The notes under the pieces: generated by a model | The model's database searches: none | What the model saw: only the letters and a program-made list of their open reading frames with translations | What the model was told of the DNA's origin: nothing | Part shown: positions 46,303 to 58,307 of the stretch, piece by piece | Position numbering within the stretch: the stretch's first letter is position 1 | Layout of the letters: every line of letters begins with the position of its first letter | NCBI GenBank assembly: GCA_031368325.1 | Contig: JANMNR010000059.1 | Coordinates: 761-64,760, forward strand | From: Pirellula sp. | Lineage (GTDB): Bacteria; Planctomycetota; Planctomycetia; Pirellulales; Pirellulaceae | Direction of reading: 5' to 3' | Length of the DNA stretch: 64,000 bases | Made by a program: the position numbers and the translations under genes

Positions 46303-47459
46303 TGCCATCGTCGCCATTGAGAACCGTCGGCATCCTGCCTGTGGGTGCGCTCGGAGCTGCGTTCTATTTCCATTTAACACGCGGATGCACCGAAGCTCGG
46401 GACCGGATTCAATTCGTACAACGACGCGGTTCCGTCAACACCGCTGCGCTCACTCAAAAAGGCACACTGACGATTTCCTCCGATGGCCACGCGCAAAGTA
46501 TCAAGTGGTCCGACGCTTGCCGGGCCGATTTGGTTTCCTGTGCGCAAGCGGTTTGGCTGCCCGACGTTCTGCTGGTTTGCACGCAGCCCGATCAATTGCT
46601 GGCGGTCATCGGCGAATATGTTCAATTGCTTGAGTACCTGCATAACGTTCACGGCATCGAAAACGCTCTCGAACGGCTTCCGATTGTCGTGTTAAGCAGT
46701 AACGGCATCTACCACGAGCGAGTGAGGCGGTTTCTGGTCGAGCTTCTGGAGGAGTCCATGCTCTATGGCCGGCTCCCGGACCTGTGGAGCCAATGGATGG
46801 GGCTCATCGTGGGCAAGCTGATTCGAGGCGTCACTGTCCAGACCGGATATCGAGTCGGCTCCGGCGCGGAAGCGTTGTACTGTGCAGGACCATCCGCCCG
46901 AACAACCTTAGCAGGTGGCGATGCAAATAATCGCCAACGGTGTGCTGAGCTACTGCAAAATCTAGGCGGATGGTTCGAGGCTAAAAACGATCCGCCGGTC
47001 CGAGTCGAGTTTGACAAGGCGCTTATCAATTTATGGAGCAACTTGCTTGGCCAGTTGAGAGCGATCGACGAAACTGGGAGGTTTCGGTTGTTGCGAATTC
47101 GCGAAATTTTTTTGAACTCGGACGACGACGAATGGGGCGAGCTTTCAGGACACTTGTTTTCAATCGGGCAAGCGGTTAGGGCCTACCGTCCCGACGAGGA
47201 CTTCGAGCAGCTTCACAAAACGACGCTGCAGTTTTCGAGTGGAGCCGGTGATCATTATCCCTCCAGCCTCAAATGGATCGAAACGGAGTTGAACGCGGGC
47301 ACCCTGAGGCCGCAGCTCACCCCGACAGAAAAATGGTTGCTCGACCCGCTTGTGCATTACGCACGTACGGCTGGTTTGGACGATGCCGCCAACTACTTTA
47401 GTTCGCTAAGAACTCGGATCGAGCAAAAACTGGCTGCCGCGATTGCGTATCGCCATTAG
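46302..47459 (+). CDS. Ketopantoate-reductase (PanE/ApbA)-like Rossmann protein, divergent
   Basis: VGILPVGALG, LLVCTQ, VLSSNGI, EFDKALIN. TAATG stop/start overlap with the ACT gene. Confidence 0.55.
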   Translation: MPSSPLRTVGILPVGALGAAFYFHLTRGCTEARDRIQFVQRRGSVNTAALTQKGTLTISSDGHAQSIKWSDACRADLVSCAQAVWLPDVLLVCTQPDQLLAVIGEYVQLLEYLHNVHGIENALERLPIVVLSSNGIYHERVRRFLVELLEESMLYGRLPDLWSQWMGLIVGKLIRGVTVQTGYRVGSGAEALYCAGPSARTTLAGGDANNRQRCAELLQNLGGWFEAKNDPPVRVEFDKALINLWSNLLGQLRAIDETGRFRLLRIREIFLNSDDDEWGELSGHLFSIGQAVRAYRPDEDFEQLHKTTLQFSSGAGDHYPSSLKWIETELNAGTLRPQLTPTEKWLLDPLVHYARTAGLDDAANYFSSLRTRIEQKLAAAIAYRH

Positions 47460-47664
47460 TCTCATTCTTCATTGATGTCGGAATTGGCCCATTTCAAACT
47501 TAGTGCTTTGTCCAGATTAGGTTTTTGCATACAACGGACTTCCAGTCCTTTGACAAAGGTTGGAACCGACGGACGAGAAGTCCGTCGTACAGGTTCAAGT
47601 CGATCCAATTCTCTTATCTCGACGGTATGGGCTTTGGGTTGCTAGCGAAAACCTTTTGCATCCC

Positions 47665-49092
47665 TCATTTTGAAAGTTCGAGACGAAGAGTTGGTGGCGA
47701 CAGCGTTGAGTTGTCTGAGGCTGCAAATCCAAAGACCAGCGATGCTGCTTTCACTGATTGCGTCTCGCAAACAATAACCATGGTAGCTATTTGGTTTTGA
47801 TCTTTTGTAAGATATTCCACCAACTCTGGACTCTGAACAGAGAAAGCACCCTCCTGAACTCCTTGTGGAATAACAAACCTGCCCAGCAACCGAGCGGTCC
47901 GTACGTCGACAGAACCGCCGCCTTGAGTACTTGCTGGAGCACTGTTCCAGGTCGATTCCAAAGGCAGAGAGTCCATCGCATCTTCAGTGATACCGTAGAC
48001 AGCAAACGATGAATCGATGGTCAGTGATGCAAAACCCAAACCGCTGGGGGTTGCGTTCAAATGCAACGAAGCGTTCGAAATGGCATTGCTTTCGACGCTC
48101 GACAGATCAAACCTCAAGTACGCCTTGCGATCGTAAATTCTGACGTCGGGCGTAGACCATTTTACAAGTAGCATTCCAAGCGACGATGCTTTGCTGGAAC
48201 CGGGTTTCAGGTCAGCACGCTGGACCCAGTAGTCTGCTCCACTGCCCATAGACGTCGTTAGATGAACGACGCGGGCTTCATTGGATTGGATTTTTGGTAC
48301 TATGGACGTTCCCTGTTCGACGTCGTGTGACTCAACAATCATCCCTCTAGACAATCGAACACCGCTCTTACCGAGTACGGTTCTCTCGACACCGGTGGTG
48401 CGGTCCTCGACATCAACGCGTCCCTCGAGGACATGCATCTCTGACTCTCCGCCTTGCTGCACGCTAACGCAAAAGCTGGTACCCTGATCGATCAGAATTG
48501 CATTGGGAGTTTCGACAACGAAGCCCTTGAAATCGGTGTGAACTGTTGTGAGCAGTTTTCCTGAATTCAATCTGCATCGCGTGGGTGCAACAATTTCGAG
48601 ATCAGCCGGTCCCTCGAGTTCGAGTACGGCTCCGACATCGAATCGAATCGTAACCAATCCGGCAGCAAGCTTTAATCGACCGATACCGATCTGCGAGCCA
48701 GCATCTGTCGGAACCGAAGCAGAAATCCAACGCGTGCCGGAGATTGCGTCCAGGCTTGCGAAGGTTGTCTTTTCGGACCGAAAATTCCAGTGAATTGCCG
48801 ATGCGGTCAGCGCGATCAAGAGTACGGCAGCGAAAGCGATTGCAAGGTTGTTGAAAGAAAGCCAATAGTCAGCCCTGCCCCGTTCGTTCTTGGGCTTCGG
48901 CAAAGTCGACGATGTCTCGGCTACACGCACGAGCGCAGCGTTAAGCACGCTGAGATCAACAAAGCGACGCATCAACTCCGGTGATGAACTGGCCAGTTGC
49001 TCTAAACGACGAGCTTGAGCCTGGGATGCGCGGCCATCCATCCAAGCGTCCGCAAGTTCCTGAAACTCTCGCATGTTCGCGACGTCTTTCAT
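47665..49092 (-). CDS. FecR-family anti-sigma factor with C-terminal DNRLRE/CBM96-like domain
   Basis: N-terminal anti-sigma helix, TM segment AIAFAAVLLIALTASAI, FecR core (LELEGPA...LNSGKL...FVVETP...DQGTSF) and RKAYLRFDLS. Confidence 0.85.
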   Translation of the reverse strand: MKDVANMREFQELADAWMDGRASQAQARRLEQLASSSPELMRRFVDLSVLNAALVRVAETSSTLPKPKNERGRADYWLSFNNLAIAFAAVLLIALTASAIHWNFRSEKTTFASLDAISGTRWISASVPTDAGSQIGIGRLKLAAGLVTIRFDVGAVLELEGPADLEIVAPTRCRLNSGKLLTTVHTDFKGFVVETPNAILIDQGTSFCVSVQQGGESEMHVLEGRVDVEDRTTGVERTVLGKSGVRLSRGMIVESHDVEQGTSIVPKIQSNEARVVHLTTSMGSGADYWVQRADLKPGSSKASSLGMLLVKWSTPDVRIYDRKAYLRFDLSSVESNAISNASLHLNATPSGLGFASLTIDSSFAVYGITEDAMDSLPLESTWNSAPASTQGGGSVDVRTARLLGRFVIPQGVQEGAFSVQSPELVEYLTKDQNQIATMVIVCETQSVKAASLVFGFAASDNSTLSPPTLRLELSK

Positions 49093-49634
49093 ATCGAAGT
49101 CTCTTTCGCCACTCTATTCTGCACACAATCTAAAAGACTACATCGAACTCTGCTAAGCAATCGATAGATCGCATCAGGCTTTCGTTCCATTCGCTCCGCG
49201 ATCTCTTCGATCGCACTCCCATTGCTGTATCGGTGCCGGATCAATTCTCTATGGTGGGATGGCAAGCGTTCCACGCATTTTTCTAACGCGTCCAGTCGAC
49301 GGTCCAGCGAACCGGCCTGCGAATCGAGCTCTGCCGACAACGCTTCTAAAAACGAATCCGAAAAAACGAGACGGTCTCGCTGCTGTTTCTTTCGCCAAGC
49401 CCGCATTTGATTGAAGGCAACCCGGCATGACCAAGCGGCAAAATTGCTATTTGGCTCAAAGGATTCAAATTCTCGCCAAAGGACCAGATTTGTATCTTGC
49501 TGCACGTCCTCTACCGCAACCCGATCATGCATCAGACTCATCAGATAGACAAAGATCCGATGTTGATTTTCGCCCAAGAGCCTAACGAACTCTTCGATTC
49601 GGGCGTTTTTGCTGGAGGGATTCGGTTCAGTCAT
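49089..49634 (-). CDS. ECF RNA polymerase sigma-70 factor, Rhodopirellula/Verrucomicrobium type
   Basis: EDVQQDT, NFAAWSCRVAFN, IEEIAERMER...IYRLLSRVR. ATGA overlap with the FecR gene. Confidence 0.92.
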   Translation of the reverse strand: MTEPNPSSKNARIEEFVRLLGENQHRIFVYLMSLMHDRVAVEDVQQDTNLVLWREFESFEPNSNFAAWSCRVAFNQMRAWRKKQQRDRLVFSDSFLEALSAELDSQAGSLDRRLDALEKCVERLPSHHRELIRHRYSNGSAIEEIAERMERKPDAIYRLLSRVRCSLLDCVQNRVAKETSI

Positions 49635-49956
49635 TGGGAACTTGTAATTAACTTAAGCAATTCGGCAACAGTCTAAAGCAAGCTTGGTTTCTTAGGGCAA
49701 ACGGCAGCTCGGACTTTAACCGTGGCAAAAGCTCACGCCTGTGGTTTATCTATTCTCAGGGATGGAAGCCTATGCCACGCTGCGTAAGAGCACCTTATGC
49801 CTTTTTTGGACGCTGGAAATCAAAAAGTTTACGTTTCCTGGGAAAAAGATGTCCAGAAACCTCCTTAAGGGCTCTTTAGTGCCGCACGAGAGTCCATTAC
49901 GCTGATCGCAACGGACTCCAACTCGTCATTTTATCTAAGATATTGCAAGGTGGATC

Positions 49957-50925
49957 ATGAAACGCAGGCTCGGTTTTACGTTGGTAGAGTTATTGGTCGT
50001 TATTGCCATCATTGGTATTTTGGTTGGGCTATTGCTACCTGCTGTCCAGGCGGCGCGAGAAGCCGCTCGGCGGATGCAGTGTTCGAATAATGTGAAACAG
50101 ATTGGATTGGCATGCCACAATTATGAAAGCGCTTTTAGGAGCCTTCCTGCTGGTGGCATCGTAAGTTACACGCCAGCCGCACAGGCAGCATTGACTCCTG
50201 CCAATTTTTGCACAACCGGTTTGGACCGAACCCAGGCGCCCTGGTCGGTTCTCATCCTTCCTTTTGTGGAGGAAACGAATTTGTATAACCAGTTCGATCT
50301 AAAGAAGAGGTTTACTGGCTCTTCAAACATTCCGGGTGACCCGCCGAACGCGGCACTGTTCGCAACCAATATGAAAAAATTTCAATGTCCGTCGGATCCC
50401 AATTCGGAATCCAGCGTCAACAACAGCAACTACTTGGGAGTCCAGGGCGGGGGGCCTCCCACAGGCGTTGGCTCTGCTCCCTGTTCGACCAATGCTGGGC
50501 AGCGAGTCTTTTTTCAAAACGGAGTCATTTTCGCGAATTCCAAAGTTCGTTTCGCAGATATAACCGACGGAACAACGAACGTCTTCCTAATCGGTGAAAG
50601 TCGATACATGCCGGTACCAAGAATGCGAACCGATGGGTTCCACGCAGGCTGGGCATCATCGCTCAAGGCAGATAGTGGATTCGCTGTTCCGCTCACATTT
50701 TCGGCGGCTGTGTTGCAGATCAATGCCCAAAAAGAATGCGCCGTTGGGGTGGCGGATTGCTTCAATTTTGTGAGTCGATTGTTCGGCAGCAGGCATCCCG
50801 GAGGATGCCAATTTGGACTCTGCGATGGATCGGTACAGTTTGTGAGCCAGAGCATTGACATCAATACCTACCGTCAAATGGCGATTCGGAATGACAGTTT
50901 GCCAGTCGGTGGTTCGCTTGAGTAA
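49957..50925 (+). CDS. DUF1559 prepilin-type N-terminal cleavage/methylation protein with H-X9-DG motif
   Basis: GFTLVELLVVIAIIGILVGLLLPAVQAAREAARRMQCSNN and SRHPGGCQFGLCDGSV. Confidence 0.95.
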   Translation: MKRRLGFTLVELLVVIAIIGILVGLLLPAVQAAREAARRMQCSNNVKQIGLACHNYESAFRSLPAGGIVSYTPAAQAALTPANFCTTGLDRTQAPWSVLILPFVEETNLYNQFDLKKRFTGSSNIPGDPPNAALFATNMKKFQCPSDPNSESSVNNSNYLGVQGGGPPTGVGSAPCSTNAGQRVFFQNGVIFANSKVRFADITDGTTNVFLIGESRYMPVPRMRTDGFHAGWASSLKADSGFAVPLTFSAAVLQINAQKECAVGVADCFNFVSRLFGSRHPGGCQFGLCDGSVQFVSQSIDINTYRQMAIRNDSLPVGGSLE

Positions 50926-51023
50926 ATTCAGATTCGGGTTATCAAGTTCGAGTTTGTATGGCTTGACCCTGAACAGCATTATGCCCAATTCCACTTTTAC
51001 AAAAAACACCTAAGTTCGAATCT

Positions 51024-51440
51024 ATGAATACTCTGTTTGCCTCTCTGCCCACGAAGCTAACGTGGCTTTCGGTACTGGGCTTAGCGATTTCGATTCTCGG
51101 ATGTGGTGGCCAAGACGGCCCGGTTCGCTATGCCTTGGAGGGAACGATAACCATGTCCGACGGCAAACCGGCTCCGGCGGGTGAAATCTCCTTTGAACCA
51201 GACAGCGCCGCTGGAAATTCTGGGCCGGGCTCCATGGGCCAAATATCCAATGGAAAATACACACTTCCCAAAGATCAAGGAGTCGTTGGCGGCAAGTACA
51301 TCGTTACCATTACGCCGTTTGACGGAGTTCCATTCGGTGAGTCCCTTCAAGGAAAGGCGCTTGTGAAAACACCTTACGTTGAAAAGGTTGATCTACCCGC
51401 CAAGAACGGCAGCAAGGATTTTAAAGTAACACAGAAGTAA
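51024..51440 (+). CDS. Small lipoprotein (carboxypeptidase-regulatory-like fold), typical DUF1559 partner
   Basis: Lipobox ILGC; GTIT...GKP...GEISFEP...ISNGKY...GKYIVTI. Confidence 0.8.
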   Translation: MNTLFASLPTKLTWLSVLGLAISILGCGGQDGPVRYALEGTITMSDGKPAPAGEISFEPDSAAGNSGPGSMGQISNGKYTLPKDQGVVGGKYIVTITPFDGVPFGESLQGKALVKTPYVEKVDLPAKNGSKDFKVTQK

Positions 51441-51581
51441 GCCGATTGAATTCGCTCTGATAGTGGAATGGCGCGAGCCATCACACAATGCAATCCTCGG
51501 TCGGCTTGCGTTGCACCACGACAACACAATCCAAACAACACTTATCGCCAACCCCCCCACGCACATCATGCGTGCGCAACC

Positions 51582-53867
51582 ATGAACAACCTACTAAAAA
51601 ACTTTCTTTGCTTGTTTGTTCCGCTCCTATTTTCTTCAATCAGCCAGGGTGATCAAAACACGCCAAGCTTGTTGTTGGAGGCGGAGAGTTTTGAGCAGCC
51701 TGGCGGTTGGTCACTCGATACGCAATTCATCCGACATATGGGCTCGCCCTATTTGATCGCACATGGAATCGGAAAGCCTGTGACCGATGCGATCACCAAG
51801 GTCGAGTTCCCAGAAACAGGTAGGTACCACGTGTTCGTCCGTACCAAGGACTGGGTTGCACGATGGAAGGCAGACGGCCAGCCGGGCAAATTCCAGTTGA
51901 TTGTCGATGGCGTCACACTCAAGGAGACGTTTGGTACCAAAGGGGCGGATTGGAATTGGCAGGATGGCGGCACTGTTGAGATCAAGAACAAATCCGTGTC
52001 CGTTTCATTGCATGACTTGACCGGTTTCGATGGCCGCTGCGATGCGATCGTCTTTACCAAGGGGACAAAACCGCCGCCTGATAGCAATGATATCTTACCT
52101 GGCTGGAGACAAACCATGCTCGGCCTTAAGGATACGCCCACGCCAAAGAGTGGCTATGACTTAATCGTCGTTGGTGGCGGTTACTCAGGAATGGGGGCAG
52201 CGATTTCTGCCGCTCGAATGGGATGCAAAGTCGCTTTGATCCAAGACCGTCCGGTCTTGGGTGGCAATGGCTCGAGTGAAGTTCGAGTGTGGGCAATGGG
52301 ACTTATTCGCCGTGGCAAGTATCCCCGTATCGGCGAAATCGTCGAGGAGTTTTCGGACAAAGCAAAGAAGTCGCCAGGTACCTTCGAAGAGTTTGGCGAT
52401 GCTCAAAAGGAGGCGCTCGTTCGCGCCGAAGCCAATATCGACTTATTCTTGAATCATCATGCGTTCCAAGTCGACATGGATCAGCAACGCATTTCAGCCG
52501 TCTATGCGTTTGACACCAAGACCAGTGAGTACAGCAAGTTTACTGGAAAACTCTTCTGCGATGCGACAGGCCACGGAACGCTCGGTGCATTGGCAGGTGC
52601 CGATTGGACCATGGCCGAGAAAGGCCGCATGGGGATGAGCAATATGTGGGCTTGGGACGAAGGGGACAAGTCCGTCGAATTCCCCAAGACTCCATGGGCC
52701 CTCGATTTGAACATGAGCGACTTTCCGTATCCCGTCGATCACCATGGCCAATGGTTTTGGGAAAGCGGGTTTGACAAAGACGCCATCGGAGATGCAGAGG
52801 GCATTCGCGATTGGAACTTGCGAGCAGTCTTTGGCGCATTCAACGCCATGAAGAACCGGGATGGTGCAGACAAGCACAAGACCGCATTTTTGACTTGGGT
52901 CGCTTTTATCGGTGGACCGAGAGAATCTCGACAACTGCAAGGGGACTTGGTTTTGACCCAAGATGATATCGTGACCAAGAAAGAGTTTCCTGACGGTTGC
53001 GTTCCGAGTACATGGAGTATCGACTTGCACTATCCAAAGAAGCAGTACGCGGAAAAATTCCCAGACAACCCTTTCATCTCGATAGCCGAACACGATCGCC
53101 GAATTGATCGCGATTATGGATATCCAGTTCCCTATCGCTGCTTCTATTCACGGAACATTGAAAACATGTTCATGGCGGGCCGATGCATTAGCGTTACGCA
53201 CGAAGCGCTCGGAACGGTTCGAGTGATGAAGACATGCGGGATGATGGGTGAGGTGGTTGGCAAAGCAGCTTCGATATGCATCAATCATGATTGTCCACCG
53301 TCGGCGGTCTACGATCGATACTGGTCCGAGATGGATAAACTATTGCAATTGCCTGGAAAGGCGTTTCGCGCAAAACCAACCGATACGATGACGATTCCCA
53401 AAGACTCCCTTCCTTTGGCGGGAGCGTACGGAGCGCCGACGGGTTTAGACCCAGCGGCGTTGCAGGGAGTGGTGATTGATAATCGTCAAGCTAAACTGGA
53501 CGGCAATTGGACATCTGGTACGGGCTTGAAAGGATATGTGGCTTACGATTATGTTTTCGCGCAAGCAGACTCAGGAGCAACGCTCAAGTACGAATGGCAA
53601 GCGGACAAGGACATGAAAGTCGAGATTCGATTGTCCTACCAACCGCACGAAAATCGGGGAAAGAGCGTACCCGTAACCGTTGCGATTGGAGCCTCGAAGA
53701 AAGAGATACGCGTTAACATGAGGGAAAAAGCCGCGATTGATAACGCGTTCGTCTCGCTCGGTGTTTTCAACGCAAAAGCGGGCGACGTGATTTCCATCGT
53801 ACAATCGACTGACAAGGCTGGAGGAATTGTTCATGCTGACGCAGTTCAGATCCTGCACGCCCCGTAG
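51582..53867 (+). CDS. Secreted FAD-dependent oxidoreductase (FAD_oxidored-like) with N- and C-terminal beta-sandwich/CBM-like domains
   Basis: Sec-type signal MNNLLKNFLCLFVPLLFSSISQG. VVGGGYSGMGAAISAAR, LGGNGSSEVR, FCDATG, PYRC, AGRCIS. LLLEAESF N-domain and VVIDN...W...ADAVQ C-domain. Confidence 0.85.
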   Translation: MNNLLKNFLCLFVPLLFSSISQGDQNTPSLLLEAESFEQPGGWSLDTQFIRHMGSPYLIAHGIGKPVTDAITKVEFPETGRYHVFVRTKDWVARWKADGQPGKFQLIVDGVTLKETFGTKGADWNWQDGGTVEIKNKSVSVSLHDLTGFDGRCDAIVFTKGTKPPPDSNDILPGWRQTMLGLKDTPTPKSGYDLIVVGGGYSGMGAAISAARMGCKVALIQDRPVLGGNGSSEVRVWAMGLIRRGKYPRIGEIVEEFSDKAKKSPGTFEEFGDAQKEALVRAEANIDLFLNHHAFQVDMDQQRISAVYAFDTKTSEYSKFTGKLFCDATGHGTLGALAGADWTMAEKGRMGMSNMWAWDEGDKSVEFPKTPWALDLNMSDFPYPVDHHGQWFWESGFDKDAIGDAEGIRDWNLRAVFGAFNAMKNRDGADKHKTAFLTWVAFIGGPRESRQLQGDLVLTQDDIVTKKEFPDGCVPSTWSIDLHYPKKQYAEKFPDNPFISIAEHDRRIDRDYGYPVPYRCFYSRNIENMFMAGRCISVTHEALGTVRVMKTCGMMGEVVGKAASICINHDCPPSAVYDRYWSEMDKLLQLPGKAFRAKPTDTMTIPKDSLPLAGAYGAPTGLDPAALQGVVIDNRQAKLDGNWTSGTGLKGYVAYDYVFAQADSGATLKYEWQADKDMKVEIRLSYQPHENRGKSVPVTVAIGASKKEIRVNMREKAAIDNAFVSLGVFNAKAGDVISIVQSTDKAGGIVHADAVQILHAP

Positions 53868-53951
53868 AGCAGCCTGTCAGCCTATTTGTGTACGAAAGAC
53901 ATGTTGCAAACCGAGAAAGGCAAACAGCCTGTCCTACGCACCAATCACGTT

Positions 53952-55649
53952 ATGAAAAATACCCGGCAATGGTGCGTGCATCTCGTTCGTATTGCGATCC
54001 TCTGCTGCATCATTTTGATGATGCATCTTCAGCACGATCGATTGTTGGCGATCCAACGTGGGCGTTCGCTTACTCAAGCCGTTTGGAACAGCGGATTGGG
54101 ATTTTATCCTCCATCATCAAAATGGGGTGAACCAGAGAATCATGGTGGTCGAGAAGTCCTCAGCGTCGATAGCGAGTCGATTGGTTACGTCGTTCAAACG
54201 GCACCGGAGAGCGATCGATTCCTCGGCTTCTCGGGACCGACCAATCTGCTGATCGCTTTTGACAAACGGGACCGTATTCTCGGTGTGGAGGTGTTGTCCA
54301 GTCGCGACACACGCGACCACGTAAACCTGATAGTCAAAGATAAAGCGTTTTTCGGAGCGTGGAAGAATATGTCCTGGCAGGAGGCGGCATCAGCAAAGGG
54401 CGTCGACGGAGTCGCCGGCGCAACGTTGACCAGCCTGGCCATGGTCCAAGGGATTCAACGGAGGTTGGGGGCGGTTGACGTTGCAGGCAAGTTCCCAGAA
54501 ACCCTGGAATTGAGCGCGGCCCAAGGTTTTTTTCCGATGGCCGACCGCATTGAGCAGGATAGTACGGTCCGATCGTTGTGGCACGTTTCCGACGCGAAGT
54601 CGATTGTTGTCGGAGCAATCCTGCGCACTTCTCCGGCTGCAGATGAGATCGTTGGTTATCAAGGACCAACCGACACCCGTATCGCATTCAAGCCCGACGG
54701 AACCATCATTGGTATCTCCATTTCAGCCAGCTTTGACAACGAGCCTTATGTTGGATACGTCAAGAGCGACGCAGGATTCGAGAAGCTTCTTAAGAAATAC
54801 TCGATGAAGCAATGGAGCACGCTAGATCTCAAACAAGAACAGATCGAGGGTGTATCTGGAGCTACGATGACAAGCATGGCGGTCGCTCAAGGGTTGATCG
54901 CAGCAGCGGCCGCCTATGAATCGGAACAAGCGGCGAAACAAACATCTCAAACAGCGAATTGGACAGGGATTTGGCGTACCATCAGTACGATAGCCATCGT
55001 GGCATTCGGCTTGATCATTGGCTTGAGCTCATTGCGAGGCAACAGTCGCGTCCGCATTGCTTTTCAAGTTATCGTGATTGTGTATCTAGGATTGATCAAC
55101 GGCGACCTTTTGTCGATGGGCATGTTTACCGGTTGGGCACAAAGCGGTATTCCATGGCAAAACGCTTTGGGCTTGGTTGTGTTGGCAGCCGCAGCCATCA
55201 CGTTACCGATTGTTGCTCGCAGCAATGTTTACTGTTCGCATCTTTGTCCTCATGGAGCGGTTCAGCAGTTATTGCCTCGCCGATGGAAGACGAAGTCATC
55301 GATGCCGCGTGCACTCGTTCGGCTGTTGTTTTGGATTCGTCCCGCGCTGATTGCGTGGGTGATCTTGGTTACGTTACTGCAGTTACCCTTCAGCTTGGTG
55401 GATATCGAGCCCTTCGACGCCTATGCATGGCGATCGGCAGCATGGCCGACTGTCGTGGTGGCTGTGTTGGGAATCGTCGTTTCGTTGCGAGTTCCGATGG
55501 CCTACTGCCGATATGGTTGCGGAACGGGAGCCATACTTCAATACCTGCGTCGGCATTCACGCAGCGATCGGCTGACGCGAGCCGATTTGCTTGCCTGCGG
55601 GTGCTTGGCGGTTGGCGTGCTGCTGTACTTCGCGAGAATTCCGTCGTGA
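53952..55649 (+). CDS. NosR/NirI-like membrane protein: two FMN-binding domains plus polytopic CX3CP domain
   Basis: GFSGPT...DGVAGATLTS (54414-54425) and GYQGPT...EGVSGATMTS (54855-54866). Several TM helices. YCSHLCPHGA and YCRYGCGTGA. Start 53886 or 53952. Confidence 0.85.
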   Translation: MKNTRQWCVHLVRIAILCCIILMMHLQHDRLLAIQRGRSLTQAVWNSGLGFYPPSSKWGEPENHGGREVLSVDSESIGYVVQTAPESDRFLGFSGPTNLLIAFDKRDRILGVEVLSSRDTRDHVNLIVKDKAFFGAWKNMSWQEAASAKGVDGVAGATLTSLAMVQGIQRRLGAVDVAGKFPETLELSAAQGFFPMADRIEQDSTVRSLWHVSDAKSIVVGAILRTSPAADEIVGYQGPTDTRIAFKPDGTIIGISISASFDNEPYVGYVKSDAGFEKLLKKYSMKQWSTLDLKQEQIEGVSGATMTSMAVAQGLIAAAAAYESEQAAKQTSQTANWTGIWRTISTIAIVAFGLIIGLSSLRGNSRVRIAFQVIVIVYLGLINGDLLSMGMFTGWAQSGIPWQNALGLVVLAAAAITLPIVARSNVYCSHLCPHGAVQQLLPRRWKTKSSMPRALVRLLFWIRPALIAWVILVTLLQLPFSLVDIEPFDAYAWRSAAWPTVVVAVLGIVVSLRVPMAYCRYGCGTGAILQYLRRHSRSDRLTRADLLACGCLAVGVLLYFARIPS

Positions 55650-55659
55650 GGGCATCGCG

Positions 55660-56790
55660 ATGAAAAGTCTAGTCGCTGCCGCCTTTTGCATCATGGTCCT
55701 TCTGCTTCTGGATAGGAACATTGCTGCTGAAATCAAAATCGTTTCCGGTAGAGCGATGGGAACATCCTATACGCTGAAGCTTGCCGGTCCATCGGAAACA
55801 ACTTCCTTTGACGAAGCAAGTACCGCAGTCAAAGACGAACTGGAACGCATTGAAACGATCTTTTCACTCTATCGTCCCGAGTCCGAACTAAGCCGCTGGA
55901 ACGAGGCCAAAGCCAACGAGTGGATCGAGGTATCCGAAGATCTGTACTTGGTTGCCCAGTTTGCAATGGAGTTGTCTCGAGAAACGGACGGAGCATTCGA
56001 TCCGACCGTTAGGCCGCTCATGCGGTTGTGGCAGCTGGATAGCCTTGCTCCAGCTTGGGCTCCCCCAAGTCTGGAAGCGATTGAGGAGTGCCGAACAAAG
56101 ATCGGCTCAAATCAAATCGAGTTTCAGGCTAATCCACGATCGATTCTGAAACGAAGCGACGCGATCCAAATGGATCTCAATGCACTCGTTGAAGGCTGGG
56201 CGATCGATCACGTCGTTTCACTGCTGACAAGAAGGGGCTTCGGTCGAGCTTTGTTTGAGCTTGGTGGCGAATTCGGTAGTATTGGCAGGCCGACGGATTC
56301 AGTGCCATGGCAAGTCGGGATCGAAGATCCAACGAATCCATCACGGTTGATCGCCAAAGTGGCGTTGATCGGTGAATCGCTTTGCACATCCGGTAACACG
56401 AAACAGGGAAGAGTGCACCGTGGGCAACGCTATTCGCATATTCTCGATCCGCGGACGGGACGTCCCCTGGATCATGACATGGCGACCGTGTCGGTACTGC
56501 ATGCTAGCGCCATGGTTGCCGACGGGTGGTCGACTGCATTGCTTGTGTTGGGACCAAAGGCATCGCGAGCGTTTGCGGAGCGAAAGGGGCTCTGCGTAGG
56601 TTTCGTTCGCATTACACCAGAGGGCGTTCACATGAGCTCGACAGCGGAATCGAGCGACCGATTTCAACGTAGCAACGCCGACGTGACGCCCAGCAGTTGG
56701 CCGCACTGGGTCATGTCGGGGATAAGTGTTTTTGTGTTAGTAGGTTTTTTCGCCGCTTATATCGTGCTAAATAAGCGAAAATCCAGATGA
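55660..56790 (+). CDS. apbE: FAD:protein FMN transferase
   Basis: AMGTSY, FSLYRPESELSRWN, TDGAFDPTV, DLNALVEGWAID, ELGGEF, CTSG, YSHILDPRTG, ADGWSTAL. Confidence 0.92.
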   Translation: MKSLVAAAFCIMVLLLLDRNIAAEIKIVSGRAMGTSYTLKLAGPSETTSFDEASTAVKDELERIETIFSLYRPESELSRWNEAKANEWIEVSEDLYLVAQFAMELSRETDGAFDPTVRPLMRLWQLDSLAPAWAPPSLEAIEECRTKIGSNQIEFQANPRSILKRSDAIQMDLNALVEGWAIDHVVSLLTRRGFGRALFELGGEFGSIGRPTDSVPWQVGIEDPTNPSRLIAKVALIGESLCTSGNTKQGRVHRGQRYSHILDPRTGRPLDHDMATVSVLHASAMVADGWSTALLVLGPKASRAFAERKGLCVGFVRITPEGVHMSSTAESSDRFQRSNADVTPSSWPHWVMSGISVFVLVGFFAAYIVLNKRKSR

Positions 56791-56864
56791 ATGGAGAAGC
56801 TGTGCAGTAGGATTCATTCCGAGGTGAATGACCTGCGGCATACAGGTGCTCGCCGCTGTGCGGG

Positions 56865-58307
56865 TTAAACTTTGGGGACTTCGTGGACGACAAGCAGATT
56901 GTGCGTGTTGTTGATTAGCCCCGTGCCGGTCACGTAGACGACGCGGTCACCAGCAGCAAGCATGCCTCGCTCGACAGCCCATTTGGTCACTTCGTCGAAC
57001 AACCCCTCGGGATTATCGAGGTTTGACACTTTGTGTGGCATGATCCCCCAAAACAAACACATGCGCCGAAGCGTATGGTCGGAGTCGCTGACACCCAGCG
57101 TTGGGATATAGTTGCGTTGCTTCGATTTAACCCACGCCGTTCCGCCTGTTCGGCTGGCCACGACAACGAGCTTGGCGTCGATCGCTTCTGCGATGTTGGC
57201 GGCATTATGCGTGACCGCTGCCGTGATGGGATGCACCCGCGAAAAGAATCGTGTCTTGGAATCCTGCGGTTGCGTCTTGAGCATCTTTTCCGTGCTGAGC
57301 ATGATGCGATTCATGGTATCGACGGTAATGATCGGGAAATCACCGATCGCCGTTTCGCCGCTCAGCATACAGGCATCCGCACCATCGAGAATGGCATTGG
57401 CGACGTCGCTTGCTTCGGCTCGGGTTGGACGTCGATTGTGATGCATGCTCTCTAGCATTTGTGTCGCCACGATGACTGGCTTGAGACGCTCGCGGCAGAC
57501 TTGGATGATTCGTTTTTGTGCTACCGGCGTGTCGGCAACATCGATTTCAACGCCCAAGTCCCCTCGCGCGACCATCACTCCGTCCGCAGCATCCACGATC
57601 TCTTCCAAGCACTCAAGAGCTTCACGCTTCTCGATCTTGGCGATCACCAACGCTTGAGCGTCCATCGACGCCAGTAGGTTCTTTAGCGACGAGACGTCCT
57701 GTGCCGATCGAACAAACGACAAACTGATGAAGTCCACATCGTTCTTTGCAGCCCATAATGCATTCGAGACATCTTCAGGCCGCATGGACGAAACCGAAAG
57801 GGAGGTCCCCGGCAAATTGATCCCTTGCTTGGAGCGAATCGTTCCGCGGACTGAGACAAAGCAACGGACGCTGTCGCGCTGCTTGTCGATGACGTGCATG
57901 GATATCATACCGTCCGCCAACATGACCGGATCGCCAACACCTAGTTCGTCGATCAGTTTGGTATAGTTGCTTGTTAGTTCCGTCGGAGAGCCAGGTACGT
58001 CGCCCCGAATGAACGTCACCTCGGTGCCGACGTCCACCTCTAGCGGATCCTGCAACAATTTGCCGAGTCGAATTTTAGGACCAGCCAAATCGAGCAAGAC
58101 CCCAACAGGAAAACCCGTTACTTCGCGGACACGTTGGATCTTGGCCATGACACGTGCGAAATCGGTTTGTGTACCGTGGGCGGCGTTGATTCGGAAAATG
58201 TCGACGCCATGGATCACCAACTCCGCCAATATCGCTTCGTCTTCACACGCCGGTCCAATTGTCGCCACAATCTTGGTTCGAGCTTCGCTTAACGTATTTC
58301 GTGGCAT
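56865..58307 (-). CDS. pyk: Pyruvate kinase
   Basis: TKIVATIGPA, IAKIEK, MVARGDLG, ATQMLESM, CMLSGETA. Confidence 0.97.
   Translation of the reverse strand: MPRNTLSEARTKIVATIGPACEDEAILAELVIHGVDIFRINAAHGTQTDFARVMAKIQRVREVTGFPVGVLLDLAGPKIRLGKLLQDPLEVDVGTEVTFIRGDVPGSPTELTSNYTKLIDELGVGDPVMLADGMISMHVIDKQRDSVRCFVSVRGTIRSKQGINLPGTSLSVSSMRPEDVSNALWAAKNDVDFISLSFVRSAQDVSSLKNLLASMDAQALVIAKIEKREALECLEEIVDAADGVMVARGDLGVEIDVADTPVAQKRIIQVCRERLKPVIVATQMLESMHHNRRPTRAEASDVANAILDGADACMLSGETAIGDFPIITVDTMNRIMLSTEKMLKTQPQDSKTRFFSRVHPITAAVTHNAANIAEAIDAKLVVVASRTGGTAWVKSKQRNYIPTLGVSDSDHTLRRMCLFWGIMPHKVSNLDNPEGLFDEVTKWAVERGMLAAGDRVVYVTGTGLINNTHNLLVVHEVPKV

Follow-up and report, generated by a model that had tools for sequence, protein, structure and literature searches.

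Meheust et al. (2021, eLife; PMC8238504) drew up a catalogue of electron-transfer systems of the 'NapH-like' type, which are extracytosolic and associated with flavinylation. The class comprises 2465 clusters with modular partners, including periplasmic oxidoreductases, and most of the partner reactions are unknown (PMC8238504). In these systems, a polytopic PF12801 protein with N-terminal extracytosolic FMN_bind is encoded together with ApbE and an adjoining periplasmic oxidoreductase, with partners such as NosZ, PceA, NirS and ExaA. NosR and PceC are named there as flavinylated parts of reductive systems, and predicted clusters of ExaA with a NapH-like protein are also reported (PMC8238504). 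The planctomycete locus described here shares this set of components, but its oxidoreductase is an uncharacterised PF12831 flavoenzyme flanked by CBM-like domains, and its periplasmic chain would be all-flavin; most orthologues carry two FMN domains. From its sequence, the locus appears to be a further case of this known kind of electron wire, here ending in an enzyme that is uncharacterised, and the pairing is conserved across planctomycetes. A first-pass annotation had proposed the system as undescribed. This holds for the partner enzyme, and PF12831 is absent from the text and the accessible supplements of PMC8238504; it does not hold for the conduit, the class of which had already been defined there.

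We analysed a 64,000-nt stretch of DNA (hereafter, the window) of contig JANMNR010000059.1 from Pirellula sp. (GCA_031368325.1), in which the locus occupies positions 47665-56790. The seven genes listed by the first-pass annotation were all recovered by ORF and domain searches, with the coordinates and domains that it had given. The features are as follows.

47665-49092, minus strand: FecR-like anti-sigma factor (475 aa; PF04773), lineage-specific accessory
49089-49634, minus strand: ECF sigma factor (181 aa; TIGR02989), lineage-specific accessory
49848-49879, no strand assigned: conserved intergenic block, GATGTCC-N13-AGGGCTCTTTAG, candidate promoter or operator
49957-50925, plus strand: DUF1559 (SBP_bac_10)/prepilin-type protein (322 aa; PF07596), recurrent accessory
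51024-51440, plus strand: small lipoprotein (138 aa; lipobox ILGC)
51582-53867, plus strand: FADox, exported flavoenzyme (761 aa; PF12831 and Golvesin_C), core component
53952-55649, plus strand: NapHFMN, membrane protein (565 aa; two FMN_bind and Fer4_5), core component
54414-54425, plus strand: first flavinylation-type motif, AGAT in DGVAGATLTS, predicted FMN acceptor Thr158 of NapHFMN
54855-54866, plus strand: second flavinylation-type motif, SGAT in EGVSGATMTS, predicted FMN acceptor Thr305 of NapHFMN
55233-55250, plus strand: CX3CP motif CSHLCP, NapHFMN residues 428-433, in a basic, predicted cytoplasmic loop
55506-55523, plus strand: second Cys motif CRYGCG, NapHFMN residues 519-524, in a basic, predicted cytoplasmic loop
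55660-56790, plus strand: ApbE-family FAD:protein FMN transferase (376 aa; PF02424), frequent accessory or maturase

The five co-oriented genes, from DUF1559 to ApbE, are separated by spacers of 98, 141, 84 and 10 nt, and a scan of the locus detected no terminator-like site in any of these spacers. Next after ApbE comes a pyruvate kinase gene in convergent orientation. The neighbours of the locus include no nos, nqr or rnf genes, as had been claimed.

We observed that the locus encodes what the operational definition of PMC8238504 names: a multi-TM PF12801 protein, FMN_bind with a flavinylation motif and an ApbE in the same cluster, all as predicted features. The NapHFMN reading frame is open from 53886, and the start at 53952 is backed by orthologue alignments. 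The two FMN_bind domains scored 77.5 bits, and Fer4_5 (PF12801) scored 38.8 bits against a cut-off of 22. Seven hydrophobic segments, oriented by hydropathy and the positive-inside rule, predict that a TM anchor at the N-terminus is followed by two FMN_bind domains in the periplasm and then by six TM helices. The FMN_bind domains, with DGVAGAT and EGVSGAT, lie between TM1 and TM2 and are extracytosolic by this predicted topology. Motifs of the form D/E-x-x-[SA]-G-A-T are conserved in the 75 NapHFMN orthologues, two being present in 54 of them and one in the other 21. The first FMN site of the window protein has Ala at position 1 and not Ser/Thr; among the orthologues, AGAT occurs 9 times versus 104 times for SGAT. 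CX3CP is found twice in 53/75 orthologues.

NosR shares with NapHFMN an ApbE-flavinylated periplasmic FMN_bind domain, six TM helices and a cytoplasm-side CX3CP, all predicted in the case of NapHFMN. However, NosR has a C-terminal 2x[4Fe-4S] ferredoxin domain, whereas the ferredoxin motif CxxCxxCxxxC is absent from the window protein and from all 75 orthologues; the window NapHFMN ends 41 residues past its last Cys motif and has no ferredoxin tail. It also has two FMN domains against one in NosR, and its second Cys motif is CX3CG. The NosR model NF046105 gave 57.1 bits against a cut-off of 1000, and together with the missing ferredoxin domain and the lack of nos genes nearby this led us to reject NosR as the identity of the protein. 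The NapH/MauN model TIGR02163 was rejected likewise (17.1 bits against a cut-off of 213). The proposal of a flavinylated NapH/NosR-like conduit stands in that the domains, motifs, predicted topology and orthologues fit a conduit serving an exported flavoenzyme.

The reading frame of this flavoenzyme is open from 51468, and its start is very probably the ATG at 51582, on which the gene call and all the orthologues agree. We observed a signal peptide, a CBM35-like beta-sandwich (residues ~28-160), the PF12831 FAD domain (~190-590; 239.4 bits against a cut-off of 27) with the dinucleotide-binding GxGxxG motif as GGGYSG at residues 198-203, and a Golvesin_C CBM (~625-760; 62 bits). FADox is thus assigned by its domain matches to the PF12831 FAD_oxidored family, as a predicted flavoprotein. 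A search returned 7958 homologues at E<=1e-10, the best 120 of which are 67-100% identical. The signal of the window protein is Sec-type (MNNLLKNFLCLFVPLLFSSISQG), and an RRxFL-like motif was seen in just 1/120 orthologue N-termini, the signal peptides of the other 119 being of the Sec kind; Tat export was ruled out on these two grounds.

The AlphaFold model of FADox has a pLDDT of 85. Numerous Trp, Asp, Glu, His and Arg positions in the FAD domain are invariant, which counts towards an enzyme of carbohydrate type. The N-terminal beta-sandwich matches the fold of a CBM35 (2w1w_B, TM 0.76, first predicted model). The C-terminal domain (residues 623-754) matches residues 906-1039, the C-terminal CBM, of the Paenibacillus PL8 xanthan lyase 6f2p (E 7e-12, rmsd 2.1 A, 137 columns). 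This carbohydrate-binding-like Golvesin_C domain is all that the two proteins have in common; the PL8 catalytic domain is absent from FADox, and a xanthan lyase identity was rejected, the match being confined to the C-terminal module. The same match accounts for historical 'xanthan lyase'-type annotations and is silent on the reaction. For the FAD domain, the PDB holds no close solved relative: sequence matches span the dinucleotide-binding motif only, and the best fold match (TM 0.46) is a geranylgeranyl reductase-like protein, a reductase. FADox paralogues of 39-55% identity carry F5/8-type C, NedA-like galactose-binding or GH43-like modules, and some adjoin GHL6, or xylose-isomerase-like TIM-barrel and Gfo/Idh/MocA genes. 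A carbohydrate substrate is plausible because of the CBM-like domains on FADox and the carbohydrate-type modules on its paralogues; CBM-like beta-sandwiches are no proof of sugar binding.

The pairing of the two proteins was followed across 401 Planctomycetota genomes. NapHFMN was present in 29/30 genomes with a full-length FADox orthologue versus 1/371 without one (Fisher p 7e-42, which ignores phylogeny; the hosts fall in nine families, and the value is inflated by shared ancestry). Among 71 GTDB species-level loci, 45 have FADox and then NapHFMN adjacent on one strand, and in B. marina DSM 3645 zero bases separate the two genes. In Planctomycetota, the oxidoreductase thus goes together with the FMN_bind/Fer4_5 gene, often with ApbE as well, in gene adjacency and also in phyletic pattern; a lack of such co-occurrence is what the first-pass annotation had named as refuting its proposal. 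Both genes are also kept where they are unlinked, which speaks for their coupling. By these comparisons, FADox followed by NapHFMN is the conserved core, and the remaining genes are accessory.

It could be argued that this adjacency is incidental, NapHFMN being a general periplasmic redox module for other clients or for repair and FADox an O2-using oxidase or a non-redox enzyme. The two genes are unlinked, both being kept, in 12/29 genomes (~40%), NapHFMN-ApbE fusion proteins occur by themselves, no redox enzyme being encoded close by, and paralogous FADox subfamilies occur without any NapHFMN, so that the enzyme family has no intrinsic need of it. Against this, the phyletic co-occurrence is near-perfect, the fixed gene order recurs with reading frames that overlap or abut, and the unlinked NapHFMN copies adjoin no alternative conserved client gene. 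We regard incidental adjacency as very improbable.

The reading that we favour, in which we place about even confidence, is that the two proteins and their maturase form a conserved functional unit where FADox oxidises a carbohydrate and the electrons pass via the FMNs to the quinone pool. FADox would be exported unfolded through Sec and take up its FAD in the periplasm. A periplasm-facing ApbE would link FMN, drawn from FAD, covalently to NapHFMN at Thr158 and Thr305, and these flavins would make a short wire from the FAD of FADox to the NapH-like six-helix membrane domain. There, the four cysteines of the cytoplasm-side CX3C(P/G) motifs are likely to be ligands of an Fe-S centre near a quinone site. 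With FADox as a putative glycoside or oligosaccharide dehydrogenase, the path would run from FAD to FMN, FMN, the membrane domain and the menaquinone pool, and periplasmic sugar oxidation would thereby feed aerobic respiration. One cytoplasmic-face Fe-S site and periplasmic flavins leave the transmembrane step unaccounted for, and this counts against the proposal. So do the Ala at the first FMN site, the lack of a characterised close relative of the FAD domain, and the FADox subfamilies that work without NapHFMN.

In membrane-bound FAD sugar dehydrogenase complexes, a cytochrome c subunit relays the electrons to quinone. The proposed logic is alike, that is, periplasmic oxidation by a flavoenzyme or quinoprotein and a dedicated membrane-associated carrier to the respiratory chain, as a functional analogy only; the carrier there is haem c, whereas here a NapH-like protein with covalently bound FMN domains would take that part, and FADox is neither a GMC-family nor a PQQ enzyme. 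The ExaA and NapH-like clusters (PMC8238504) can be seen as a flavin-for-cytochrome analogue of the same complexes. More tentatively, and with a probability that we put well short of even, FADox may found an unrecognised family of periplasmic carbohydrate-oxidising flavoenzymes, of the 'auxiliary activity' type and outside GMC, VAO and PQQ. Its haem-free chain would lead from FAD through two FMNs to a minimal NapH-like quinone reductase, with DUF1559 serving in substrate capture. If carbohydrate oxidation through an all-flavin wire is true, planctomycetes would conserve energy directly by oxidising glycans imported into their enlarged periplasm.

The direction of electron flow has to be weighed here. 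NapHFMN may instead draw from menaquinol or a cytoplasmic donor, through the Cys-motif centre and the FMNs, to a FADox that acts as a periplasmic reductase or as a redox-neutral enzyme needing reduced flavin, of which UDP-galactopyranose mutase is an example. Since NAD(P)H is absent from the periplasm, a FADox of either sort would need a membrane donor; the strict co-retention of NapHFMN would then be explained by this lack of a periplasmic pyridine-nucleotide donor. To our knowledge, all the experimentally studied NapH-like proteins (NapH, NosR and PceC) supply periplasmic reductases and send electrons outward, not inward; PMC8238504 goes only as far as placing NosR and PceC in reductive systems. 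In fold, the FAD domain is likewise nearest to reductases, namely geranylgeranyl reductase-like, fumarate reductase or APS reductase flavoproteins, but the resemblance is weak (TM <= 0.46) and of a kind common to the whole GR2 flavoprotein superfamily. Moreover, transfer from quinol to a low-potential covalent FMN would be uphill, with neither a ferredoxin tail nor extra clusters, and the context points to no reducible substrate. FADox hosts include Pirellula, Blastopirellula, Rhodopirellula, Thalassoglobus and Planctomicrobium. These genera are mainly aerobic heterotrophs, which speaks against a reductive FADox and weakly favours the oxidative direction. We consider outward flow possible but doubtful.

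For ApbE, the likely start is the ATG at 55660, 10 nt past the NapHFMN stop, in a reading frame open from 55591. The PF02424 match (251 bits, E 1.9e-74) covers Pfam positions 1-258 of 266, and a hydrophobic N-terminal signal/anchor and an extra C-terminal TM helix are predicted. The E. coli equivalog model gave 185 against a cut-off of 498, and because of this score we call the protein a family member and not an equivalog. There are 5 ApbE paralogues in the window's own genome, and ApbE lies beside the FADox-NapHFMN pair in 16/40 loci (~40%). In L067 and P0180-P0197, ApbE is fused to NapHFMN, which also speaks for a link between the two.

As the first-pass annotation had it, the ECF sigma/FecR pair is divergent from the five genes; the intergenic region measures 322 nt. 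The sigma factor matches TIGR02989 (167.7 bits against a cut-off of 124.55) and contains Sigma70_r2 and r4_2 domains, that is, sigma regions 2 and 4, and its stop overlaps the start of the FecR-like gene by 4 nt. The adjoining FecR-like protein (PF04773, 30.2 bits against a cut-off of 24) is predicted to have a cytoplasmic N-terminus, a single TM helix (residues 83-101) and a periplasmic FecR domain. Its C-terminus is a beta-sandwich with weak CBM96/DNRLRE similarity (CBM96 E 1.5e-4, below the cut-off of the model).

In the full model of the first-pass annotation, a glycan sensed through FecR would induce the five co-oriented genes, from DUF1559 to ApbE, as one regulon, the seven genes forming one conserved ECF-controlled utilisation system. 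The weak CBM96/DNRLRE-like match and the conserved intergenic block are in line with this. The seven-gene layout is the same in a close relative (L085, where the FecR orthologue is 63% identical) and partly so in L087, all seven gene types are kept in rearranged order in L091/L093, and L044 has ECF-FecR upstream of FADox-NapHFMN-ApbE. However, beyond L085 the analogous ECF/FecR pairs are those of L091/L093 and L044 only. An ECF gene lies within 6 kb of FADox in 4/63 loci and FecR near it in 3/63, in about three independent lineages and not clearly above chance, and the FADox-NapHFMN pair stands alone in B. marina and most other genomes. Among the compared loci, the intergenic block is kept in the window and its close relatives L085 and L087 only (the remaining spacer being 65% identical). 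On the minus strand, where a promoter scan placed a promoter-like site at 49855-49826, the block coincides in part with a sigma-70-like -35 element, and it could equally be the -35 element of the sigma gene itself. The seven genes are thus not one conserved system across these loci, and a shared regulon of this kind seems to us rather unlikely. That DUF1559, lipoprotein and ECF/FecR loci are typical substrate-responsive clusters found no support in the searchable literature. In the favoured reading of a FADox-NapHFMN core, the Pirellula lineage may have recruited the ECF sigma/FecR pair, possibly for induction, and a specific DUF1559 pseudopilin-like protein together with the accompanying lipoprotein, perhaps for substrate capture.

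Both the DUF1559-lipoprotein pair and ECF/FecR recur in some lineages only. The DUF1559 protein (PF07596 E 5e-58, with N_methyl and TIGR04294 matches) has a prepilin-type N-terminal methylation motif and a C-terminal H-X9-DG motif. DUF1559 is found near FADox in 12/63 loci, and the window's own genome has 63 DUF1559 matches. In L126, L127, L159 and L162, the gene immediately preceding FADox is a DUF1559 copy with 42-43% identity to the window protein, closer than the best paralogue of its own genome (39%). The 138-aa lipoprotein had no Pfam or NCBIfam match; in L085, L087, L039, L126, L127, L159 and L162, a homologue (36-79% identity) comes after the DUF1559 gene. The lipoprotein gene travels with the DUF1559 gene, and in several lineages an orthologous pair of the two immediately precedes FADox.

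ORF and domain searches recovered all seven genes that the first-pass annotation had placed in the region 47665-56790 and read as an ECF/FecR-controlled flavin redox locus. The starts of the last three genes listed are the likely ones, as supported by alignment of orthologues and by the public gene call.

Genes of the locus
47665-49092, minus strand: FecR-domain protein with one transmembrane helix (4-nt overlap with the ECF sigma gene)
49089-49634, minus strand: ECF sigma factor (TIGR02989, 167.7 bits against a cut-off of 124.55)
49957-50925, plus strand: DUF1559/prepilin-type protein
51024-51440, plus strand: lipoprotein of 138 aa, without family
51582-53867, plus strand: FADox, exported flavoenzyme of 761 aa with PF12831 FAD_oxidored and Golvesin_C (likely start 51582)
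53952-55649, plus strand: NapHFMN, membrane protein of 565 aa with two FMN_bind domains and a Fer4_5 region (likely start 53952)
55660-56790, plus strand: ApbE, 376 aa (likely start 55660)

The ECF sigma gene and the five plus-strand genes are divergent across a 322-nt spacer, and the spacings within the five-gene run, using the likely starts, are 98, 141, 84 and 10 nt. No terminator-like site was found within this run. The sigma-70 promoter and terminator scans remained at shuffle level, with a site count that did not exceed that of shuffled sequence. A search of 47000-57500 for riboswitches and other known RNAs gave no Rfam family at E ≤ 0.1. In the ECF/DUF1559 spacer, the block GATGTCC-N13-AGGGCTCTTTAG (49848-49879) is kept in the comparison loci L085 and L087, and the remaining spacer has diverged; the block is common only to the window and these close relatives, two related Pirellula MAGs. 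It may serve either divergent transcription unit as a promoter or operator, and its role is ambiguous because it overlaps a sigma-70-like -35 element of the minus strand.

We then compared the distribution of FADox and NapHFMN over 401 evenly drawn Planctomycetota genomes. A full-length FADox orthologue was present in 30 of them. A strong NapHFMN orthologue was observed in 29 of these 30, the exception being an 86%-complete MAG, against a comparable match in only 1 of the 371 genomes without a full-length FADox orthologue (Fisher p = 7e-42, uncorrected for shared ancestry; nine families). Hence, the co-occurrence of the oxidoreductase with the FMN/membrane gene in other genomes, on which the first-pass annotation had staked its reading, held. 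In 17 of these 29 genomes the two genes are neighbours, with FADox preceding NapHFMN; the other 12 retain both genes at separate places. Among 80 further species-level loci, 71 had enough sequence downstream of FADox to be evaluated, and NapHFMN lies directly downstream in 45 of these. Blastopirellula marina DSM 3645 has the two genes directly abutting, and no other gene of the window locus is nearby. The window's own genome has one FADox and one NapHFMN, together with five ApbE paralogues and 63 DUF1559 matches. When every ORF of 41 loci was clustered (gene calls in the comparison loci were made by simple ORF logic and tblastn), no conserved neighbours were found beyond FADox, NapHFMN and ApbE; sulfatase, DUF1501, PSCyt/DUF1553 and Gfo/Idh/MocA genes recur near FADox only sporadically. 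Judged from gene content, the FADox–NapHFMN pairing is a conserved planctomycete trait.

One of these sporadic neighbours was seen at L087 (2081-5948), where FADox is 83% identical to that of the window. There, the lipoprotein gene and FADox are separated by an insertion of two tightly packed genes of the same strand, PSCyt1-PSCyt2-PSD1 (DUF1549/DUF1553) and DUF1501. DUF1501 and PSCyt/DUF1553 pairs were also observed near FADox in six other loci.

For NapHFMN, hydropathy and the positive-inside rule predict a short basic N-terminus followed by TM1 (residues 8-26), a periplasmic stretch of 316 residues holding both FMN_bind domains, and six further helices. The motifs DGVAGAT (Thr158) and EGVSGAT (Thr305) match the ApbE acceptor pattern, and CSHLCP (428) and CRYGCG (519) fall in the two most basic loops, for which a cytoplasmic location is predicted. 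Of the 75 orthologues compared, 54 carry two acceptor motifs and the other 21 a single one (SGAT occurs 104 times versus 9 for AGAT); nearly all have the two CX3C motifs, and none has the ferredoxin motif CxxCxxCxxxC. The window protein scored 57 bits against the NosR model (cut-off 1000) and 17 bits against the NapH model (cut-off 213). PDB searches by sequence and profile gave nothing for the NapH-like membrane domain, and the sole matches were weak ones to RnfG-type FMN domains. By the presence of acceptor and CX3C motifs and the absence of the ferredoxin motif among the orthologues, the protein is thus a minimal NapH/NosR-like module and is neither NosR nor NapH.

FADox has 7958 homologues in public data at E ≤ 1e-10. 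The best 120 of these are 67-100% identical and belong to Pirellula, Blastopirellula, Maioricimonas, Planctomicrobium and unnamed planctomycete MAGs, the closest named relatives being Pirellula (86% identity). The enzyme is found in at least 578 GTDB species loci, with 60-70% identity between families. A PF12831 match was present in 104 of the 401 sampled Planctomycetota genomes, and PF12831 enzymes bearing CBM-like modules are abundant in this phylum; we found no characterised member and no solved structure among them. The literature retrieved for PF12831/FAD_oxidored consisted of unrelated flavoproteome and transcriptome papers that merely name the accession or the family, with no functional data, and no paper retrieved for Golvesin with FAD and carbohydrate-binding contained the word Golvesin. 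FADox copies of 64-68% identity also occur on seven contigs (L112, L138, L141, L142, L145, L148 and L153). Their MAGs carry the names Candidatus Kuenenia, Verrucomicrobiales or Chitinophaga, which appear to result from faulty binning or naming and not from a true spread beyond Planctomycetia.

A Sec-type signal peptide without a twin-arginine motif was observed in 119 of 120 FADox orthologues, and Tat export was rejected on this ground. The Sec-type signal therefore implies that FADox would acquire its FAD after export, in the periplasm. As the FMN donor of ApbE is FAD, a periplasmic FAD pool would supply ApbE besides FADox, and Sec export would imply a supply common to both proteins.

A first AlphaFold model of FADox, built from a shallow alignment, was poor (pLDDT 67); a second with a more diverse alignment reached pLDDT 85 and pTM 0.78. 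In the model and its fold matches, the N-terminal and the C-terminal Golvesin_C domains are both CBM35-like beta-sandwiches, and the latter matches the terminal module of a Paenibacillus xanthan lyase (6f2p; E = 7e-12, rmsd 2.1 Å). We rejected FADox as a relative of xanthan lyase, since the match to this PL8 enzyme is confined to the C-terminal CBM; the idea of a Paenibacillus lyase within PF12831 found no support. The FAD domain carries GGGYSG. PDB searches of this domain by sequence and profile gave no match past the Rossmann dinucleotide motif, and its nearest solved folds are generic flavoproteins only: a geranylgeranyl reductase-like protein (TM 0.46), followed by fumarate reductase, MnmG and APS reductase (TM about 0.3).

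Paralogous FADox subfamilies (39-55% identity) have the N-terminal sandwich and the FAD domain in common and carry F5/8-type C or NedA-like galactose-binding C-termini, or a weak GH43-like N-terminal extension. The paralogue at L082 (6475-11302), in genome G330 of the same order as the window's genome, is 39% identical, has the NedA-like C-terminus and is found in a genome lacking NapHFMN. Downstream of it are genes for a xylose-isomerase-like TIM-barrel and a Gfo/Idh/MocA protein, families linked to oxidative (3-keto) glycoside cleavage pathways; another paralogue sits near a GHL6 protein. Because of these paralogue modules and sugar-gene neighbours, a carbohydrate substrate for FADox is plausible.

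In the paralogue at L077 (5198-8566, genome G138; 1122 aa), about 375 aa are added at the N-terminus, and this extension gives a weak, below-cut-off GH43 match (E = 2e-5); if the match is real, it would be a glycoside hydrolase–flavoenzyme fusion. In another Pirellula MAG (L086:2550-5624; FADox 86% identical, ECF and DUF1559 genes absent), the gene upstream of FADox encodes a 1024-aa glucose/sorbosone dehydrogenase fused to a cytochrome c domain, that is, another exported sugar dehydrogenase with the haem carrier built in.

NapH-like proteins with flavinylated domains serve periplasmic oxidoreductases, and ApbE moves FMN from FAD onto Thr/Ser of such acceptor motifs (Meheust et al. 2021; PMC8238504). 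In the scheme we propose, ApbE would flavinylate NapHFMN at Thr158 and Thr305, and FADox would dock onto the flavinylated FMN_bind domains. Electrons would be exchanged among the FAD of FADox, the FMN pair and the membrane domain of NapHFMN; the four cysteines in the motifs of this domain probably bind an Fe-S centre beside a quinone site. We favour FADox as a periplasmic carbohydrate dehydrogenase with electrons passing to menaquinone, because of its CBM-type architecture and because its hosts are known as aerobic heterotrophs. The reverse flow, in which a quinol or cytoplasmic donor supplies a periplasmic reductase or reduced-flavin-dependent enzyme, is a serious rival. To our knowledge, the NapH-like proteins studied experimentally to date (NapH, NosR and PceC) all operate in this donor-to-reductase direction, and the folds nearest to the FAD domain are reductases. 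In the catalogue of flavinylation-associated systems, NosR and PceC are named only as flavinylated parts of reductive systems (PMC8238504).

The locus falls within the operational definition of the 'NapH-like' systems of that catalogue. The catalogue lists 2465 clusters of this kind, with NosZ, PceA, NirS and ExaA as the named partners, and gives most of the reactions as unknown (PMC8238504). PF12831 is absent from its text and searched supplements, and NapH-like systems are not treated in a 2024 flavinylation paper. The conduit principle is therefore known already and ours is an added case of a known class; the partner enzyme family is uncharacterised, and its pairing is conserved in planctomycetes. 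Within a class whose reactions are mostly undescribed, the pair is a sharply defined, highly conserved case for which three proteins suffice for testing. The dedicated electron-transfer partner also indicates that at least the FADox subfamily probably does real periplasmic redox chemistry, making it an entry point to the large PF12831 family.

ApbE is beside the FADox–NapHFMN pair in 16 of 40 evaluable loci. In several lineages (L067, the homologous proteins P0180-P0197, and L165:8001-10682), it is fused to the NapHFMN C-terminus, giving polypeptides of about 890-910 aa with flavin acceptor and flavin transferase on one chain; at L067 (9009-11732, genome G396) the order is FMN_bind x2 - Fer4_5 - ApbE (907 aa). 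These fusion genes are solitary, and the FADox orthologue is elsewhere in the genome. At L117 (4628-5956) and L132 (4612-5955), the pair is directly preceded by an ApbE that ends in an NqrM domain (PF04400). As NqrM is a maturation factor for the Fe centre of Na+-NQR, this fusion hints, by analogy, at a matching maturation step for the NapH-like Cys-motif centre. Both operons begin with a PQQ-like beta-propeller protein and an alpha/beta-hydrolase of ~880 aa. Unlike these copies, the window ApbE lacks the Cys-containing NqrM part; it has an additional C-terminal transmembrane helix (residues 351-369) followed by a short basic tail, and would be anchored at both ends.

A DUF1559 gene is directly upstream of FADox in L126, L127, L159 and L162, with 42-43% identity to the window copy; within the window's own genome, the closest paralogue reaches only 39%. 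A small lipoprotein gene lies between the two in L126, L159 and L162; the close relatives L085 and L087 likewise have the DUF1559–lipoprotein pair. Two weaker copies of this pair, at 26-37% and 38% identity, occur in genome G137 (L039), and L124 has the DUF1559 gene without the lipoprotein. The crude chance expectation for DUF1559 adjacency to FADox is about 1%. The DUF1559 literature gave passing mentions and no functional data, and the recurring DUF1559 and lipoprotein partner is a rare context clue for this huge planctomycete family. All seven gene types were observed at L091 and L093 in a rearranged order, with ApbE-lipoprotein-DUF1559 divergent from ECF-FecR-FADox-NapHFMN. Besides these two loci, ECF/FecR was seen only in the window's close relatives and L044, so the association covers about three independent lineages and is not clearly above chance.

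The locus ends at a pyruvate kinase gene (56865-58307 of the window), which is convergent on ApbE. A pyruvate kinase gene also adjoins FADox in genome G003 (L040:6965-8389), and its position next to the module in both is probably residual synteny.
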